A stretch of DNA of 64,000 bases from Escherichia coli (GTDB lineage: Bacteria > Pseudomonadota > Gammaproteobacteria > Enterobacterales > Enterobacteriaceae): the NCBI RefSeq assembly GCF_003334315.1, contig NZ_QOWR01000007.1. One strand, given 5' to 3'. The notes beneath the pieces are model-generated. The model was not told the origin of the DNA. It was given only the letters and a program-made list of their open reading frames with translations, and did not search any database. Each line of letters opens with the position of its first letter. Within the stretch, counting starts at the first letter, position 1. Shown piece by piece: positions 31,415-38,923 of this stretch. The position numbers were made by a program, and so were the translations under genes.

Positions 31415-32692
31415 TTAGCTTGTCGCTAACTGTACTTGCGGTTCTTCATCTTTAACTTTGATAAGCGTCCACAGCGCAATGGCGCCAATAATGTCAAAGA
31501 AAGCCAGGGCAATAAAGAACGGCGCGAAGCCGATAATGTGAACGAATGCCCCGATAAACAGGTTGAAAATCAACTGACCGCTCCACGCACAGGCTCCTGC
31601 CATACCCACTGCGGTAGCTACTTCGTCTTTTTTGAACAGATCGCCACCCAGAGTTGCTGCTACAGTAGAAAGACATTGATGCGAGAACGCGCCAATACTA
31701 ATCAGTAATACGGCAATGTAGGGATTTTCGACAATACTCACCAGGCCAATCGTCATCATAATGACGGCTGCAATAGTGAAGGTAATTCTTCGTGAGTTAA
31801 TTAAACTCACGCCGCGATCGTGGAAGAACTTCGCGACAAAACCACTGGCTAAACAGCCGAGATCGCCCAGCAGGAAAGGCAGCCAGACGAACATGGCAAT
31901 TTCTTTCAGGCTAAAATGCAGCGTTTCGACGAAGAAAATCGGCACCCAGAAGTTAATGGTTCCCCATGCCGGGTCTGCGAGAAAACGCGCGATGCCAATC
32001 CCCCAGAAATTACGTTGGCTGAGGATATGCTTGATTGACGTTTTTTCTTTCTTATCTGTTTTAAGATGCTGTTCTTGCCCTGATTCAATATAGTGGCGCT
32101 CTTCATCAGAAAGGCGTTTGGCATCTTTCGGATCTTTATAACAAAAGAACCAAAATAAAGCCGCGAGCAAAGCAAGGCTACCTGAAACAATAAACGCAAA
32201 TTGCCAGCTATGAAACATAATGCACCAGGCAATCAACGGTGGAGCAAGCATCGCGCCGAGTGAGGTGCCCATATTGAAAACACCTGTCGCCACGCCACGC
32301 TCTTTTGCCGGGAACCATGTTGATGCGGTTTTTACACCCGCCGGAATTGCCGACGCTTCGCTGAAACCCATCAGGGCGCGCATAAATGCCAGACCTGACC
32401 ACGTTCCGGTTAGTGCATGGCCCATTGTCGCCAGGCCCCAAATTGCGGCACATATCGCAAAACTTAACTTCAGACCCACGGTATCAATAAAGAAGCCCAT
32501 TACCGGTTGCCCTAATGTATAGGCCAACTGGAATGCACTGACAATCCATGAATATTGCTCTTTAGTTATTCCGGTTGTCTCCATAATCGTTGGAGCCGCA
32601 ATACCTAACGCCGTTCTGTCCAGATAATTGATTACAGTGATAAAGCATACGAGGGCAATTATATGCCACCGGTAATTCTTTATTTTATTCAT
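31415..32692 (-). CDS. MFS permease, anion:cation symporter (ACS) family (ExuT/DgoT-like organic-anion or sugar-acid transporter)
   Basis: 425 aa, about 12 TM segments; N-terminal signature NYLDRTALGIAAP typical of ACS-family MFS; own AT-rich 92-bp upstream region. Confidence 0.8.
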   Translation of the reverse strand: MNKIKNYRWHIIALVCFITVINYLDRTALGIAAPTIMETTGITKEQYSWIVSAFQLAYTLGQPVMGFFIDTVGLKLSFAICAAIWGLATMGHALTGTWSGLAFMRALMGFSEASAIPAGVKTASTWFPAKERGVATGVFNMGTSLGAMLAPPLIAWCIMFHSWQFAFIVSGSLALLAALFWFFCYKDPKDAKRLSDEERHYIESGQEQHLKTDKKEKTSIKHILSQRNFWGIGIARFLADPAWGTINFWVPIFFVETLHFSLKEIAMFVWLPFLLGDLGCLASGFVAKFFHDRGVSLINSRRITFTIAAVIMMTIGLVSIVENPYIAVLLISIGAFSHQCLSTVAATLGGDLFKKDEVATAVGMAGACAWSGQLIFNLFIGAFVHIIGFAPFFIALAFFDIIGAIALWTLIKVKDEEPQVQLATS

Positions 32693-32784: not shown

Positions 32785-34857
32785 TTATTGTGTGTAAATT
32801 TCTCCATTTAAAAATTCTGGCCAGTTTTTTTCAAAGTAAATACCGTTAATACACGGTTGCATACGTAAAGACTTCACTTCGGTAATAAAAGAACCTTGCG
32901 AATATTTAATCGTTAATCTGTGATTTTTGTCTTCAGCCCGTTCAGAGCGAAAACGCCATTCTTCTTTTGCGCCGCGACGAGTTTGTGGGAGGCATTTGCC
33001 TTGTGGATCAATAACCATCCGCGCCCCACGACTGCCACCACCTGCGTCAATATAATGCGTCAATTGCGTTAATACCGCGGCCGAAGTCAGCGCCATATGC
33101 CGCCACATAAATAGTTCGGCAATTTCGCCTGCGTGATTGATGGTTAAACCGTGTTGTTGTACAAACTCACTTAGCAGCAGGGCGTCACGGGTGGCGTGAC
33201 GAACTTTATCGGCATGACAAATAAATCCGGCGTAATCAGACATTCGCGCCTGGATTTTTTCTTTCACCGTTACCAGCGCCATTCCGTTCTCATTTACCAG
33301 TGCCTGAGCGATAACTTCTCTGACTATATTCAGAGATGAGGCTACCAGCTGCGCGACATCACCCTCAACAGACCGCTTTTGTGTGCAACCAATAAAGCGC
33401 GCCAGACGCACGGCAATAACCTGTCCGGCATTCAGCGCCGCACCGCCTGGTCGGGTAACGCCGTGAGTTCCGGCTACTTCTCCCACCGCAAAACAACCGG
33501 GCAGGGATGTTTGTCCCCAGATATCCACTTCAATGCCGCCATTCATGTGCTGATTATTCATGGCGAACTGCAGAGGCTGCGCGGTGAGATCGTAACCGTG
33601 CATCTTATACAGCGAGATAGACAGCGGATTCATTCGTTGCAGCCGTTCGATGGGCGATGCTGCCAGAGCGTCGTTATTTTCCAGATACGCGCGAACGTCG
33701 TCGTCCAGTCGATCTAATGTGAAGGGCAAATCACCAGGCACCGCTTCAGGATTGCGATTGAAATCCATAAACACCCGACGACCATGTTGCTGCTCTTGCG
33801 CCACCGCCATATCTAACAAGCTGGAGCCAAAATCCATCACCCGAGTGGCGTGGAACGGCCACTGATAGCCTTTACGGAAAATGTTTGAAGCCAGCTCCTG
33901 GGTGGTGCGATAGTAATCCGCGAGGAAGTTATACTCGTTACCCTCAGCATCCACGGAATAGATATACGGGATCACCTGTACATAGGTGCCGGATAAATTC
34001 CACGGAAACGTGCTACGCGGCGTGCCTATACCAAACTGGCTTTCGGTCAGATTGGTTAGCGTCAGGCCTTCCTCCAGCGCCAGCCCCAGCGAGCCAAAAC
34101 ATTTGTGTGGGTACACACTGTCGCGATAAAGCTCGCCAGGCCCTCCTGTTGCCAGTACCACATTGGGCGCAGTCACAATTGCCAGCCCCCAAGGGTTATG
34201 GGCGCGATGACCGGTCGCGAGGATTGCCCCCGCAACACGGTCTTCGCCGTTTTCGTCACGCTGATGCAGCAGTTTAATCACTGTTGCACTGGTCAACACT
34301 GGAATGGCGAGGCGCTGTACTTCTTCCAACAGCACTTTCACCATTAACCTTGAGGTACGCGGCCCACACGAGGTTGCACGCCCGGCTTCGTCATGGTCGG
34401 TTTGATAACGAAGAATCGCGCCATAGCGATCTTCCGGTAATTCCAGACCAAGATATTGCAACCCGCCAAGAGTGTGCAGAGAACCTACCGCTTCGACATA
34501 AGCGGTGTCGTGATCCATCGCCCCACCGCTCGCCAGTGCCTCTGCCAGTTTGGTGAAGTTGTCGCCGTTGCCCGCGGTAGCGGCGGTAAACAGTGTCTGT
34601 TTATCGGAACCAGAACATGCCGACGTCCCCATATATAACCCGGCAGTGGCGATCAGCACATTTTGCTGGCGGCGTTTAAGTTCCACAGCTGCACGCAGCC
34701 CGGCTGCACCACTGCCGACTACCAGGGCATCTGTTTGCCAGAGTGGGTAATCAACACCGTCTACCGTGACAACCCATGCGGGCTCTGCCTGTGCAAAACC
34801 CTTTGGGAAAGTAACGTGCGTCAGCGCATCAAGGATGGTGTCATCAAGCTGACTCAT
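32785..34857 (-). CDS. FAD-dependent oxidoreductase, fumarate reductase/succinate dehydrogenase flavoprotein-like (FAD_binding_2) with extra C-terminal domain
   Basis: 690 aa; Rossmann dinucleotide motif DALVVGSGAAGLRAA; C-terminal FAD-contact motif GCFAVGEVAGTHGVTRPGGAALNAG; start overlaps upstream stop by 4 bp (ATGA). Confidence 0.8.
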   Translation of the reverse strand: MSQLDDTILDALTHVTFPKGFAQAEPAWVVTVDGVDYPLWQTDALVVGSGAAGLRAAVELKRRQQNVLIATAGLYMGTSACSGSDKQTLFTAATAGNGDNFTKLAEALASGGAMDHDTAYVEAVGSLHTLGGLQYLGLELPEDRYGAILRYQTDHDEAGRATSCGPRTSRLMVKVLLEEVQRLAIPVLTSATVIKLLHQRDENGEDRVAGAILATGHRAHNPWGLAIVTAPNVVLATGGPGELYRDSVYPHKCFGSLGLALEEGLTLTNLTESQFGIGTPRSTFPWNLSGTYVQVIPYIYSVDAEGNEYNFLADYYRTTQELASNIFRKGYQWPFHATRVMDFGSSLLDMAVAQEQQHGRRVFMDFNRNPEAVPGDLPFTLDRLDDDVRAYLENNDALAASPIERLQRMNPLSISLYKMHGYDLTAQPLQFAMNNQHMNGGIEVDIWGQTSLPGCFAVGEVAGTHGVTRPGGAALNAGQVIAVRLARFIGCTQKRSVEGDVAQLVASSLNIVREVIAQALVNENGMALVTVKEKIQARMSDYAGFICHADKVRHATRDALLLSEFVQQHGLTINHAGEIAELFMWRHMALTSAAVLTQLTHYIDAGGGSRGARMVIDPQGKCLPQTRRGAKEEWRFRSERAEDKNHRLTIKYSQGSFITEVKSLRMQPCINGIYFEKNWPEFLNGEIYTQ

Positions 34858-36395
34858 GCATCCTCCATCGGCGTAAACAGGCTACTTTCCATCAGGCGTG
34901 GATGCTTGATAATTGGACGGAAGGCCATATACGGCAGAATGTCGCGCTCAATCTCCACACTCGGTGCGATTTCAATTAATTCAACGCCTTCTGCCGTTAA
35001 CTGGAATACTGCGCGTTCAGTGATATACAACACTTCCTGACCACTTTGCTGTGCGTAGGCGGCGCTAAAAGTGATTTTTTCCACCTGGGTAACCAGTTTA
35101 GGGATTTGACCTGACTGGGCGATATGCAAGCCATCTGGCGTTACATCAATCTTGCTACCTTTGGCGTCGAACGTGCCGCAGAACACCACTTTACGGGCGT
35201 TTTGCGCAATTTCGAGAAAACCGCCGGGGCCAATGAGATTGCCATTGAGATGGGAGACGTTGACGTTACCGTACTGATCCATCTCTCCCATGCCGAGGAA
35301 GGTGATATCGATCCCTCCGCCACTGTAGAACTCAAATTGATCGAGTGATGGAATAATGGCATCGGCGTTGCGGGCACAACCAAACAGAGCATCATCAAGC
35401 ATCATGCCGTTATGTACGCCTTGCTCGACGCTCAGCCATAAACTTTGGTAAGGAACGCCTTCGCGCAGCGCTACGCCTGGAATACCGCCAGGAATACCAA
35501 AGCCAAAGTTGGTTGAAGCGCCAGCCACCAGTTCGCGTGCTGCCCGACGGGCAATCAGGCGGCGCACCGGATGACTAACCAGTTCAATAGCGTCGTTAGA
35601 ACTCAGACGGCGATGTTGACCGCTAATGGTCAGGTCGTAACCGCCAAGATAGGTTTGCGGTTGTTCGCGGTGTTCAACGATGCCATCAACCAGAATGCCC
35701 GGTAATTTGACCCGGCGTGGTTCAATCGCGCCAGCTTCCAGCACATCGCGTACCTGTACGAACACTTTGCCGCCGCTGTTGTGTGCTGCCAGCGCCATGG
35801 AATAGCTATCCATATCAATCGCTTCTTCTTCAAGGCTGACGTTGCCTCGAGGATCGGCATAAGTGCCACGCAAAATCGCGTAATCCACTTTGAAAGGGCG
35901 ATAACGAAGTTTGGTTTCACCGTCGATTTCAATCAGTTCTACCAGGTCGTCGGTAGTGCATTCATTCGACTTACCGCCGCCATTGCGTGGATCAACAAAC
36001 GATCCCAGCCCAACGTGGGTAAAAAGCCCCGGACGTCCGGCGCCGATCTCCCGTAGCAGTGCCTGAATCACGCCACCAGGAAAGCAGTAGGCTTCAATCG
36101 TGTTATTTTTTACCAGCGCCTGCATTTTGGGCGACCAGGTAAAGTGCCCGGCAATAATGCGTTTGAGCATCTCTGCGTGCGCAAAACGATTAGTGCCTTT
36201 GCAGTCGCGATCGCCAATACCCAGCGAGTGGATTAGCGTCAGGTCGCGAGGGTGTCCGGTTTGCAGGAAACGCGCTTCAATAGCAGCCAGAATATGGTCG
36301 GCTTCTACCATACCGCCGCCGTTACCGCTAATAGCAATAGTCGCACCGTCCTGAATTTGCGCCGCCAGTGCCTCGGCGGTTGTTATCTTACGCAT
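34854..36395 (-). CDS. fused alpha/beta family-I CoA-transferase (YdiF / acetate CoA-transferase type)
   Basis: 513 aa; blocks GSFVDPRNGGGKSNE, FEFYSGGGIDITFLGMGEMDQYGNVNVSHLNG and YITERAVFQLTAEGVELIEIAPSVEIERDIL parallel my recollection of E. coli YdiF; AAGGA Shine-Dalgarno. Confidence 0.85.
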   Translation of the reverse strand: MRKITTAEALAAQIQDGATIAISGNGGGMVEADHILAAIEARFLQTGHPRDLTLIHSLGIGDRDCKGTNRFAHAEMLKRIIAGHFTWSPKMQALVKNNTIEAYCFPGGVIQALLREIGAGRPGLFTHVGLGSFVDPRNGGGKSNECTTDDLVELIEIDGETKLRYRPFKVDYAILRGTYADPRGNVSLEEEAIDMDSYSMALAAHNSGGKVFVQVRDVLEAGAIEPRRVKLPGILVDGIVEHREQPQTYLGGYDLTISGQHRRLSSNDAIELVSHPVRRLIARRAARELVAGASTNFGFGIPGGIPGVALREGVPYQSLWLSVEQGVHNGMMLDDALFGCARNADAIIPSLDQFEFYSGGGIDITFLGMGEMDQYGNVNVSHLNGNLIGPGGFLEIAQNARKVVFCGTFDAKGSKIDVTPDGLHIAQSGQIPKLVTQVEKITFSAAYAQQSGQEVLYITERAVFQLTAEGVELIEIAPSVEIERDILPYMAFRPIIKHPRLMESSLFTPMEDA

Positions 36396-36404
36396 ACAAT
36401 TTCC

Positions 36405-37181
36405 TTATTGATTATGGAAGCTCACGCTACTTTTTTCGGCAAAGGCGCGCGTCGCCTGCTGGCAATCCTGAGTGGCAGACATTAATCCGGCCAGTAGCTG
36501 GTGCGGGTAATCGGCATGTTTATTTTCCAGTGCCAGAATCAGTTGCTTAATATGCGCCAGTGCCACCGGACCGCATTTTTCCAGCTGCGCTAACTGGTTC
36601 GCCATCCAGCTTTCCACCTGTTCTTTTTCTACCACTTCATCAATTAAATTCGCCGCCTGGGCTTCCTGCGCCGTCAGGCGTTTACCCAGCATCAGCATCT
36701 GGCGACCGACCACCGGACCAACCTGATTAAGCACACGTTCAATGCCCATCCAGCCAGGCACCATGCCGAGCATCACTTCCGGGTTAGAGAATTTCGCGCC
36801 GGGGCGGGCAATACGAATATCGCAGCACAAGGCCAGTTCAATACCACCGCCGATGGTATGACCGTTGAGATTCGCAACGGTTAATTGGGGTAAGTTTCGC
36901 AGGCGATTAAAAACGTCATTACCGCGTTTAATCCATTTTCTGCCCATATCTAATGGCGAATAGGCCGACCACGATTTAATATCGCCACCCGCACAAAAGA
37001 ATTTATCGCCGGTTGCCGTTAATTCGACTAATCGTAATGTGGTGTCGTTTTCAATTTCATTTAAATAATGGTCGAGAGATTCGATCATTTCTTCATTAAT
37101 AGCATGACATTTATCTTCACGGTTCAATGTCAGGCGGCAAGAAGCCGCCGCTCTGCTGAACAGAACGGGTTGGTCACTCAT
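36405..37181 (-). CDS. enoyl-CoA hydratase/isomerase (crotonase-family) protein
   Basis: 258 aa from ATG 37181 (MSDQPVLF...; AAGGA 6 nt upstream); crotonase motifs FCAGGDIK and GHTIGGGIELALCCD; the track's longer start at 37187 sits directly against the Shine-Dalgarno. Confidence 0.8.
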   Translation of the reverse strand: MSDQPVLFSRAAASCRLTLNREDKCHAINEEMIESLDHYLNEIENDTTLRLVELTATGDKFFCAGGDIKSWSAYSPLDMGRKWIKRGNDVFNRLRNLPQLTVANLNGHTIGGGIELALCCDIRIARPGAKFSNPEVMLGMVPGWMGIERVLNQVGPVVGRQMLMLGKRLTAQEAQAANLIDEVVEKEQVESWMANQLAQLEKCGPVALAHIKQLILALENKHADYPHQLLAGLMSATQDCQQATRAFAEKSSVSFHNQ

Positions 37182-37190
37182 GATCATTCC

Positions 37191-38033
37191 TTAACAATAA
37201 TGCGCGATGCGATCGACGCTAATATCCAGCGTGCTGTTAATATCTTTCTGCCACCAGTAAGGCGAGAATATTTCCAGTTCTATAGCGCCATTAAATCCGG
37301 CGTTTTCAACCAGCCGACGAATTGACGGAATATTGATGACGCCATCTCCCGGCATTCCCCGGTCATTGACCAGATCGGTGGTCGGTACTAACCAGTCGGA
37401 AACATGAAACGCGAGGATGCGTTTTCCGGCACGCAGGATCTGACTGGCGAGCTCCGGATCCCACCAGACGTGATAAACATCCACCGCCACGCCGAGGCCA
37501 AACTCACCATCGGGATCGAGTTCATCACACCAGTCCAGCGCCTGACGTAACGTGCACAGGCAAGAGCGGTCGGCAGCAGTCATCGGGTGCAGCGGCTCCA
37601 GCGCAATTGGCACGCCGACATCTTTCGAATGTGGCAGCAACTGGCGAATCCCTTGTTTTACTTGTTCCCGCGCTTCGTACAAATCTTTTGTTCCCTGCGG
37701 TAACCCGCCAACCACCTGCATATAACAGGCGGCGTTAAGCACCGCTGCGTCGTCCAGCGCCCGGCGGTTATCATCAATCGCCAGTTTGCGTTCCGCCTGT
37801 GTCGGCGCGGTGTAGTAAGTGCTACGGCACAAACCGGAAACGCTCATGTTACTGGCAGCAAGCTGGCGGGCGATTTGCTGGAGATCTTCACCCTGCAACT
37901 CCCTGCGCCAGGGGGCAATTGCGCCAATACCACGCGCGGCGCAGGCATCAATAATGGCGGGTAGAGGCGTTTTATAGCCCAGTGTTGCGGTATTGATACT
38001 GAATAAATCCGGGCGTTGTAACAGATCTCTCAT
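37191..38033 (-). CDS. sugar-phosphate isomerase/epimerase-like protein (xylose-isomerase-like TIM barrel)
   Basis: 280 aa; composition typical of AP-endonuclease-2/xylose-isomerase TIM barrels (IALEPLHP..., HVSDW...); GAGG Shine-Dalgarno. Confidence 0.75.
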   Translation of the reverse strand: MRDLLQRPDLFSINTATLGYKTPLPAIIDACAARGIGAIAPWRRELQGEDLQQIARQLAASNMSVSGLCRSTYYTAPTQAERKLAIDDNRRALDDAAVLNAACYMQVVGGLPQGTKDLYEAREQVKQGIRQLLPHSKDVGVPIALEPLHPMTAADRSCLCTLRQALDWCDELDPDGEFGLGVAVDVYHVWWDPELASQILRAGKRILAFHVSDWLVPTTDLVNDRGMPGDGVINIPSIRRLVENAGFNGAIELEIFSPYWWQKDINSTLDISVDRIAHYC

Positions 38034-38042
38034 GATTCAGCC

Positions 38043-38834
38043 TCAGAAGCGCGGCATACTTAAGCCGCCGTCGATGGCGACCGCCTGACCACAGGTGTAA
38101 ATCAGTTTACCTTCCGCCATCGCGCGGACGGTGGAAGCAATATCAGCCGGATAACCCCAACGTCCCCACGGCACCAGACCTTTGGCAATCAGTTCGTCGT
38201 AATAAGCCGTTGCCGGAATAGTCATATCGGTTTTGATGAGACCAGGGCGCACTTCATAAACGCCAATTTGTTCATTACAAAGGCGAGCAGCAAACAGACG
38301 AGCAGCGGCAGAAACGGCGGTTTTGGCAATGGTGTATTCGCCGCGATTCATCGCCAGCATGATGGCGTTGATGGAACTGACGAAAATAATCGAGCGGTGC
38401 GGCAGTTCCGCTTCCGGTTTCGGCTGTGCCAGTAAGCGCTTACTGAATGCCTGAGCAAGGAAGAACGGCGCGCGGGTGTTAATGGCAATGTTTTGATCGA
38501 AGCTGTCTGGTTCGAGGTCGAGGAGGTCACCGCGTTTTTTCACTGAAATCCCCGCGTTATTGAGCAGGCAGTCCAGACGCCCCCACTGGTTTTGTGCCGC
38601 GTCGAGCATCTCTTCATGCAAGGAGAGATCGCCGACATCGGCAGGGAAGCAAATGACTTCCACACCTTCTGCCAGACATTCCTGTTGTGTGGCATGTAAT
38701 TTTTCTACGCTGTCAGCATCGGGGCGATCGTTAATCAGCAGGTTAAATCCGCCACGAGCAAGCTCCAGCGCACAGCCCTTTCCAATACCACGAGCGGCTC
38801 CGGTAATCACGGCAACAGGACGAGTGGATTTCAT
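38043..38834 (-). CDS. short-chain dehydrogenase/reductase (SDR)
   Basis: 263 aa; cofactor motif ITGAARGIGKG, NNAG, catalytic YTIAK; first gene of the minus-strand operon. Confidence 0.85.
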   Translation of the reverse strand: MKSTRPVAVITGAARGIGKGCALELARGGFNLLINDRPDADSVEKLHATQQECLAEGVEVICFPADVGDLSLHEEMLDAAQNQWGRLDCLLNNAGISVKKRGDLLDLEPDSFDQNIAINTRAPFFLAQAFSKRLLAQPKPEAELPHRSIIFVSSINAIMLAMNRGEYTIAKTAVSAAARLFAARLCNEQIGVYEVRPGLIKTDMTIPATAYYDELIAKGLVPWGRWGYPADIASTVRAMAEGKLIYTCGQAVAIDGGLSMPRF

Positions 38835-38879: not shown

Positions 38880-38923
38880 CTTGCGACGTGCCGCAAGAAA
38901 GATCAACCATCTGGTTGGTTGAT
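38880..38923. promoter_or_regulatory. candidate TetR operator(s): two palindromes in the divergent intergenic region
   Basis: cttgcg-acgtgc-cgcaag (38880-38897) and atcaacca-tctggt-tggttgat overlapping caacca-tc-tggttg (38902-38923), inside the 211-bp AT-rich gap between the operon start and the TetR start. Confidence 0.35.

Follow-up and report, generated by a model that had tools for sequence, protein, structure and literature searches.

Fumarate reductase and succinate dehydrogenase of Escherichia coli have flavoprotein subunits (FrdA and SdhA) with a four-domain fold, a His for covalent attachment of flavin adenine dinucleotide (FAD), and partner genes for iron-sulfur (Fe-S) and membrane-anchor subunits. 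L-Aspartate oxidase (NadB; 540 aa) is a stand-alone, soluble flavoprotein that binds FAD non-covalently, has no partner subunit, and lacks the FrdA-type C-terminal domain. In the FAD_binding_2 superfamily, to which the flavin reductases of gut anaerobes and UrdA also belong, the fold has diversified to many carboxylate substrates; gut bacteria use enzymes of the superfamily to reduce the enoate group in shikimate, itaconate, cinnamates, and urocanate (bioRxiv 10.1101/2022.12.26.521950). Here, an unnamed flavoprotein gene of this superfamily is analyzed in a window of 64,000 nucleotides from the E. coli chromosome (RefSeq contig NZ_QOWR01000007.1), in which the 8.5-kb stretch around the gene is 100% identical to several complete genomes. 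The original prediction, made from the nucleotide sequence, had described the gene product as a protein of the fumarate reductase/succinate dehydrogenase type with a C-terminal extension of about 200 residues, encoded in a CoA-thioester operon. The 690-aa open reading frame (ORF) that it placed at 32785–34857 is borne out and lies on the minus strand, which had not been given; RefSeq carries the identical coding sequence under the label "FAD-dependent oxidoreductase." The C-terminal anomaly is explained and ordinary, and the protein is an uncharacterized variant of a well-known fold, encoded in an uncharacterized accessory operon.

Fold and family of the flavoprotein

The protein has, close to certainly, the full four-domain fold of complex-II flavoproteins, which comprises the FAD, capping, helical, and C-terminal domains. 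The AlphaFold2 (AF2) model has a predicted local distance difference test score (pLDDT) of 92.3 and a predicted template modeling score (pTM) of 0.93. When this model was used in Foldseek, the best matches were FrdA and SdhA (E about 1e-30, 655–690 columns, target-normalized template modeling [TM] scores of 0.70–0.79), with sequence identity to solved structures of only about 17%. The alignment by hhalign to E. coli FrdA (602 aa) has a probability of 99.2% and pairs query residues 38–655 with FrdA residues 2–567. Pfam reported FAD_binding_2 over residues 43–475 (E = 1.7e-27) as the sole domain. Together with the structural comparison and the hhalign result, this match places the protein in the SdhA/FrdA/NadB structural superfamily. 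Both FAD motifs named in the original prediction were located in the translation (DALVVGSGAAGLRAA at residues 43–57 and GCFAVGEVAGTHGVTRPGGAALNAG at residues 454–478), as was the C-terminal peptide that it quoted.

The supposed extension did not hold up. By profile search, hhalign, and Foldseek, which cover the domain scan and structure prediction that had been proposed for residues 480–690, residues ~481–605 and ~606–690 are equivalent to the ordinary helical and C-terminal domains of FrdA and SdhA. The region thus aligns as normal FrdA/SdhA/NadB domains, although not as the capping domain that had been named as the alternative to an extension. A profile hidden Markov model (HMM) of the family (36 members, 667 positions) aligned to E. 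coli FrdA in two blocks, with profile positions 15–254 corresponding to FrdA 2–232 and positions 399–621 to FrdA 341–563; the family S-R-G falls on "ESRGAH" of FrdA (GGSRGA in the query). Past the last aligned position, the tail comprises 46 profile positions in the family and 39 residues in FrdA. The same profile aligned NadB through its helical domain, to profile position 577. This C-terminal equivalence to FrdA is visible only by profile-to-PDB searches, hhalign, and structure comparison, and the Pfam domain Succ_DH_flav_C is nearly absent from the C-terminal part (one of 36 family members, E = 0.013). The impression of an extension is explained by comparison with shorter soluble relatives, combined with the fact that Pfam shows only FAD_binding_2 here. 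Moreover, most family representatives align as far as residue ~688 in the C-terminal domain, so the C-terminal region is a family-wide feature.

The protein is longer than FrdA by about 90 residues, and these lie outside the C-terminal region: the N-terminus contributes about 40, an insertion (D-K-Q-T...) behind the first flavin loop another eight, and the larger capping domain about 35–40. The first ~17 residues are restricted to the clade with at least 45% identity. The capping domain gave no HMM alignment to NadB or FrdA and only a low-confidence alignment by hhalign.

Regarding base composition, the 3′ end of the gene had been described by eye as more AT-rich than its 5′ two-thirds. The difference is real, but it is confined to the last ~80 codons (~12% of the gene) rather than the last third. 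The GC content is 0.54 over codons 1–610, 0.40 over codons 611–690, and 0.31 over the last 41 codons. A foreign graft was considered as the source of this stretch and rejected: the stretch matches a weakly conserved, allele-variable domain, and no further evidence of a separate origin was found.

It is close to certain that the protein is a member of a large unnamed family, separate from FrdA/SdhA, NadB, TfrA, and AprA. A search of 1.84 billion representative proteins returned at least 422 clusters (50% identity level) at E ≤ 1e-30 from many phyla, most of which contain proteins of 600–700 aa that align from residue ~30 to 688. Invariant motifs of the family (alignment A1) are GSDKQT, YxTD, GPxTS, WNxSGxYQ, KGYxWP, SSxxD, QHxNGG, GE..G..G..RPGGxALN, SRG, and FE. 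The E. coli protein carries these motifs and aligns over its full length to the 600–700-aa members. Structural neighbors in AFDB (TM 0.85–0.98), none of which has a name, are from Proteobacteria, Firmicutes, Spirochaetes, Coriobacteriia, Lentisphaerae, and one Asgard archaeon; other members are from Clostridia, Aminicenantes, and Rhizobiales. No NCBIfam equivalog cut-off was reached (TfrA, 123.6 vs. 718; NadB, 96.9 vs. 452.75; SdhA/FrdA, 80.7 vs. 567). Full-length similarity to enzymes of the 3-ketosteroid dehydrogenase (KstD) type was not found either, as the match is limited to the dinucleotide motif (7p18, E = 3.9e-5, profile positions 14–61). No characterized ortholog was found in NCBIfam, PDB, AFDB names, or the literature. 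The literature search found no paper on the flavoprotein family or the operon, and its sole yield concerned ytfA as a strain-variable TetR gene. The family is large, its members come from many phyla, and its active site has clearly been re-engineered. Identification of its substrate would annotate thousands of genes.

FAD contacts and active site

The original prediction had seen no canonical His for covalent FAD attachment, and the alignments agree. His44 of FrdA falls in an insert without a counterpart in the query (HMM and hhalign), and the family reads G-T-S-x-x-S-G-S-D-K-Q-T where FrdA and SdhA carry R-S-H-T/S-x-A-A-x-G-G. FAD is probably bound non-covalently, as in NadB. The N-terminus (MSQLDDTILDALTH...), as read from the sequence, has neither a twin-arginine motif nor a hydrophobic signal segment, and the protein is probably cytoplasmic.

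The residue set His232, Arg287, His355, and Arg390 shared by FrdA, SdhA, and NadB (numbering verified on the FrdA sequence) is not reproduced, with low confidence in the capping part of the alignment. Only one of these four catalytic or substrate-binding residues is strictly kept, namely the carboxylate-binding R390, which corresponds to R469. H232 of FrdA (in Q-Y-H-P-T) aligns with invariant G276 (in S-Q-F-G), and H355 aligns with Q436, one position before invariant H437. The catalytic R287, which lies in "GPRD" of FrdA, aligns with the invariant "G-S-S-x-x-D" as a Ser or a gap, although this assignment is tentative given the weak capping-domain alignment. Furthermore, the flavin is surrounded by invariant motifs specific to the family (GSDKQT, WNxSGxYQ, and KGYxWP). 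These patterns suggest that the substrate pocket has been rebuilt, yet retains an Arg that would bind a carboxylate beside the flavin. The defining features of fumarate reductase, succinate dehydrogenase, and L-aspartate oxidase are lacking.

In comparison with E. coli FrdA and SdhA, the protein shares the four-domain fold from end to end, both FAD motifs, and the R390 equivalent, but it differs by the DKQT insertion beside the flavin loop, the larger unalignable capping domain, the N-terminal addition, and the absence of a covalent-FAD His and of Fe-S or membrane-anchor genes. Among PDB entries, NadB matches best at the sequence level (profile E = 1e-29) and resembles the query in being stand-alone and soluble, but its catalytic H244 and R290 have no counterpart in the query. 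UrdA-type reductases, which are exported or respiratory proteins, do not have the FrdA-type helical and C-terminal domains, whereas the query has no FMN_bind or cytochrome domain of the UrdA/flavocytochrome c3 type; the match to these proteins is limited to profile positions ~13–222, and that to UrdA itself spans positions ~17–220. The possibility that the gene is simply an extra fumarate reductase or L-aspartate oxidase paralog is highly improbable, given that the best PDB and NCBIfam matches to NadB, FrdA, SdhA, and TfrA are all far under the curated cut-offs at about 17% identity, that H232 is replaced by Gly, GPRD by GSS, and His355 by Gln, and that no FrdB-like gene is present while frdABCD is already encoded 45 kb from the flavoprotein gene.

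Genomic context and proposed function

In E. coli, the flavoprotein gene is part of a seven-gene operon between rplI and ytfB (Table 1). The minus-strand order is SDR (short-chain dehydrogenase/reductase), TIM barrel, crotonase, CoA transferase, flavoprotein, and MFS (major facilitator superfamily) transporter, with the TetR gene ytfA divergent upstream. All seven genes are likewise found between rplI and ytfB in Klebsiella oxytoca and Salmonella. An accessory operon at a fixed chromosomal site in three genera represents a defined knowledge gap and a good target for substrate discovery. The overlap between the flavoprotein start and the CoA-transferase stop that had been proposed earlier is present (gcATGAgt), and these 4 nt are consistent with the suggested translational coupling of the two genes.

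Three enzymes of the operon, namely the flavoprotein, the SDR, and the TIM barrel, are all from uncharacterized families. The solved homologs of the SDR (4da9 and 4one) are structural-genomics entries. Those of the TIM barrel name no reaction, as 3qc0 and 3ju2 come from structural genomics and 7vpf is described as a "novel putative sugar isomerase"; the nearest characterized relative is inosose isomerase IolI (1i60, E = 6e-18 in a profile search). The regulator gene ytfA is known as a strain-variable TetR gene of E. coli (PMC6790063). A candidate operator for YtfA is the perfect palindrome between the divergent SDR and ytfA starts, which is also kept in the intergenic regions of K. oxytoca and Salmonella. 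A scan for promoters and terminators found no excess of sites over shuffled sequence, and no operon protein matched a PADLOC defense model.

As had been noted earlier, no Fe-S or cytochrome gene is present in the operon or its flanks. Membrane-anchor and FrdB/SdhB-like genes are likewise absent from the operon and flanks, and none was seen in 83 related loci. The acyl-CoA deoxyribonate pathway of Klebsiella michiganensis was also considered as the identity of the operon and ruled out because the gene content differs: the deoxyribonate cluster lacks a flavoprotein of this kind and has genes for a CoA synthetase, a hydroxyacyl-CoA dehydrogenase, a thiolase, and a glycerate kinase (PMC6365646).

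Table 1. Features of the flavoprotein gene and its operon in the window.
Feature	Position	Strand	Basis or remarks
MFS transporter, anion:cation symporter type (D-galactonate/hexuronate-transporter-like)	31415..32692	minus	TIGR00893, 315 bits, below cut-off of 395
Flavoprotein gene	32785..34857	minus	ATG ORF, 690 aa; translation, AF2 model, Pfam, Foldseek
C-terminal domain, residues ~606–690 and stop codon	32785..33042	minus	GC 0.40; invariant F675 and E676
Helical domain, residues ~481–605	33043..33417	minus	FrdA/SdhA/NadB equivalent; long helices in model
Capping domain, residues ~276–420	33598..34032	minus	Family-specific invariant motifs WNxSGxYQ, KGYxWP, GSSxxD
N-terminal ~41 residues before GxGxxG	34735..34857	minus	Short helix and beta-hairpin (DSSP on AF2 model); not in FrdA
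Fused family-I CoA transferase, YdiF/FadX type	34854..36395	minus	PDB 2ahu (YdiF), E = 1.8e-113; NCBIfam FadX, 380 bits, below cut-off
Short-chain enoyl-CoA hydratase (crotonase)	36405..37187	minus	NCBIfam; best PDB match 5zai, 3-hydroxypropionyl-CoA dehydratase, E = 3.6e-40
Xylose-isomerase-like TIM barrel ("sugar phosphate isomerase/epimerase")	37191..38033	minus	PDB 3qc0/3ju2 (SMc04130), 7vpf
SDR, PRK12745 type	38043..38834	minus	NF009386, 420 bits vs. cut-off of 250
Perfect palindrome ATCAACCA-N6-TGGTTGAT (8+8)	38902..38923		Inverted repeat between divergent SDR and ytfA starts
TetR-family regulator ytfA, divergent	39046..39693	plus	RefSeq coding sequence; NCBIfam TetR matches

For comparison of gene neighborhoods, 80 loci from a species-representative genome set were sampled together with plasmid and metagenome loci; their ORFs were called mechanically and clustered, and the clusters were labeled with NCBIfam. 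The description of the locus as a CoA-thioester operon fits the enterobacterial version only. Among the 83 loci not of this type, a CoA transferase lies within 8 kb in only four, whereas 36 have an SDR of the same type near the flavoprotein gene, often adjacent or overlapping and in many phyla, and 59 have at least one carbohydrate-type marker.

Three arrangements recur. Type A has the order TetR-SDR-(Gfo/Idh/MocA)-TIM-transporter-flavoprotein, with transporters of the MFS or TRAP (tripartite ATP-independent periplasmic) type, and is found in Pseudescherichia, Mangrovibacter, Phytobacter, Brenneria, Opitutia, Lentisphaeria, and gut metagenomes. The clusters nearest to that of E. coli (45–58% identity) read TetR-SDR-(Gfo)-TIM-FAD-transporter and have no CoA gene, and metagenome clusters read TetR-SDR-FAD-TIM-TRAP. 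The TRAP solute-binding protein of one type A cluster is closest to 4n8y, 4n15, 4n91, and 4mhf, the ligands of which are hexuronates (PMC7660916). The transporter of the Brenneria cluster is of the PcaK-like aromatic-acid type. Type B, found in Rhizobiales and Rhodobacterales with flavoproteins 52–57% identical to the query, comprises a sugar ABC (ATP-binding cassette) transporter, two GMC (glucose-methanol-choline) oxidoreductases, LacI, an LgdA-like Gfo/Idh/MocA protein, the flavoprotein, and a KdgK-like kinase; the order Gfo/Idh/MocA-FAD-KdgK-like is recurrent in Rhizobiales. Type C comprises a reductase of the old yellow enzyme (OYE) type, SDR, Eda, the flavoprotein, and a 2-keto-3-deoxygluconate (KDG) kinase, and occurs in Phycisphaerae (order SDR-Eda-FAD-KDG kinase) and several candidate phyla. 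At some loci from Planctomycetes and candidate phyla (L075:4054-6708, L081:1060-2493, and similar), the OYE-type flavoenzyme stands before the flavoprotein gene, in some cases as a fusion with a GltD-like NAD(P)-binding module, and an SDR gene and then an Eda–KDG kinase gene or fusion come after the flavoprotein gene.

These neighborhoods and the retained Arg are consistent with a C–C oxidoreductase whose reaction takes place adjacent to the carboxylate of a sugar-acid-like substrate, a reading that is favored here with moderate confidence. The most plausible chemistry is that of a dehydrogenase or enoate reductase on a free acid; the class of substrate is much less certain than the architecture and the family. 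In such a scheme, the flavoprotein would carry out a two-electron C–C dehydrogenation or ene-reduction (possibly a C–O oxidation) beside the carboxylate of a free polyhydroxy acid, which would be a sugar acid or possibly a cyclitol carboxylate and would enter the cell through the MFS anion symporter. The flavoprotein would work together with the conserved SDR partner as successive steps, joined in Proteobacteria and Verrucomicrobia by the IolI-like TIM-barrel isomerase, and in many relatives the pathway may end with a PfkB kinase of the KDG type and an aldolase. The YdiF-type CoA transferase and the short-chain crotonase of E. coli, Klebsiella, and Salmonella would be later additions, which most likely serve a branch for short (C3–C4) hydroxy or enoyl acids rather than supply the substrate of the flavoprotein. 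YtfA probably senses the substrate and acts at the conserved palindrome.

Related clusters resemble the modules for levoglucosan, 3-keto-glycosides, and inositol in having an LgdA- or IolG-like dehydrogenase, an IolI-like TIM barrel, a PfkB kinase, and an aldolase, with all matches below the equivalog cut-offs. To our knowledge, no described pathway for these compounds includes a flavoprotein of the FrdA fold. A bolder version, which we regard as possible but tentative, is that the family performs a new SDR-partnered reaction in sugar-acid or cyclitol-acid catabolism, using a complex-II fold without an Fe-S partner, a covalent flavin, or the catalytic Arg/His pair. If so, examples would be a desaturation beside the carboxylate, or a flavin-dependent formation of a keto-deoxy acid that feeds the KDG-type kinase and aldolase, and 58% of E. 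coli genomes would carry a new catabolic module.

Several observations weigh against the sugar-acid reading. Neither a kinase nor an aldolase is encoded in the E. coli operon, the gene overlap could instead mean that the CoA transferase and the flavoprotein are consecutive enzymes, and a CoA transferase and crotonase also occur near family members in a few unrelated lineages (loci L037, L047, and L053; also L078 and L017). Most neighbor labels come from NCBIfam matches below the cut-offs and from mechanically called ORFs. The lack of a characterized ortholog and the occurrence of the family in both strict anaerobes and aerobes also count here. Concerning the active site, the low-confidence mapping of R287 to "GSS" is relevant, and another residue of the capping domain, the invariant R405, could substitute for R287.

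The main rival, to which we give a low but appreciable probability, is a CoA-thioester pathway resembling beta-oxidation, in which the CoA transferase would activate the imported acid, the flavoprotein would desaturate or reduce the acyl-CoA in place of an acyl-CoA dehydrogenase, the crotonase would hydrate the product, and the SDR would oxidize the 3-hydroxyacyl-CoA. Exactly these four activities and a transporter are found in the E. coli operon, and the overlap of the flavoprotein and CoA-transferase genes would fit. In addition, genes of the family in Devosia, Rhodobacter, Rubellimicrobium, a betaproteobacterium, and a Desulfobacterales metagenome-assembled genome have as neighbors a CoA transferase together with a crotonase, or with an acyl-CoA dehydrogenase and a MaoC hydratase. 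However, CoA transferases are rare in the neighborhoods outside the enterobacterial version, the nearest clusters have no CoA gene at all, and neither a thiolase nor a ring-cleaving enzyme is present. The protein retains the Arg responsible in FrdA and NadB for binding a free carboxylate, and no enzyme of the FrdA fold is known to use CoA esters.

It is also possible, but unlikely, that the protein, by analogy with flavin reductases from gut anaerobes, is a cytoplasmic enoate reductase acting on a hydroaromatic or small unsaturated acid. Examples would be the reduction of shikimate or 3-dehydroshikimate to a dihydro form, or of acrylate or crotonate released by the CoA enzymes. Precedent exists in the superfamily (bioRxiv 10.1101/2022.12.26.521950), and the PcaK-like transporter of Brenneria, the likeness of the IolI-like TIM barrel (distant) to the 3-dehydroshikimate dehydratase fusion 5hmq, and that of the crotonase to 3-hydroxypropionyl-CoA dehydratase all point in this direction. 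These are set against the sugar ABC transporters, GMC and LgdA-like dehydrogenases, and KdgK-like kinase beside the closest relatives (type B), and no aroD, aroE, or protocatechuate genes were found nearby. Unlike respiratory reductases, the protein has no FMN_bind domain and no export signal, and its match to urocanate reductase is confined to the N-terminal FAD motif region.

Alternatively, the flavoprotein could catalyze a redox-neutral dehydration or isomerization to yield a 2-keto-3-deoxy sugar acid, which the kinase and aldolase encoded next to it would then use. Such a role would account for both the missing electron partner, as no partner subunit was seen at any locus, and the presence of the family in aerobes and strict anaerobes alike (Clostridia, Aminicenantes, an Asgard archaeon, and Rhizobiales). 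Furthermore, clusters in which a KDG-type kinase and Eda adjoin the gene contain no classical aldonate dehydratase. The idea is nevertheless improbable: it is drawn by pure inference, we know of no precedent for redox-neutral chemistry in the FrdA fold, and the other oxidoreductases in the clusters (OYE, Gfo, and GMC) suggest real redox chemistry.

Distribution and alleles in E. coli

The flavoprotein gene is present in 3138 of 5426 complete E. coli genomes (58%), and the operon is absent from the remaining 42%. The identical rplI–ytfB site in Klebsiella and Salmonella suggests that the locus is ancestral and has been lost repeatedly. Strains of the K-12 type are presumably among those without the operon, with yjfZ and a ytfA remnant at that site. 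Knowing the substrate could reveal a nutrient that separates operon-carrying E. coli from strains without the operon, presumably including K-12.

Among the 3138 carriers, the allele of the window (at least 99% nucleotide identity) is found in 124, and alleles with 90–95% identity are found in 2834. The gene is an intraspecies mosaic, in which divergence is concentrated at 33080–33530 (residues ~481–595, the surface helices of the helical domain). This block has 67–87% nucleotide identity to the common E. coli allele, compared with 95–99% in the flanks, and amino acid identity is 60–70% over residues 481–540, which form the first helices of the helical domain. A third allele group (P0028) differs mainly over residues 631–690 (32785–32970), where identity is only 43–50%; this is the AT-rich stretch in the window.

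Other rearrangements were seen at this site. In E. coli AVS0750 (L090:2727-4488), although not in the window, a helix-turn-helix gene and a frameshifted HipA toxin-antitoxin gene lie between rplI and the MFS gene. Among further E. coli genomes (NZ_CP034106.1, H1–H4, and H26–H30), some have the gene or operon interrupted by an IS1 element (~776 bp), and others lack the first 240 nt of the gene. These insertions and 5′ losses point to decay of the operon in some E. coli lineages.

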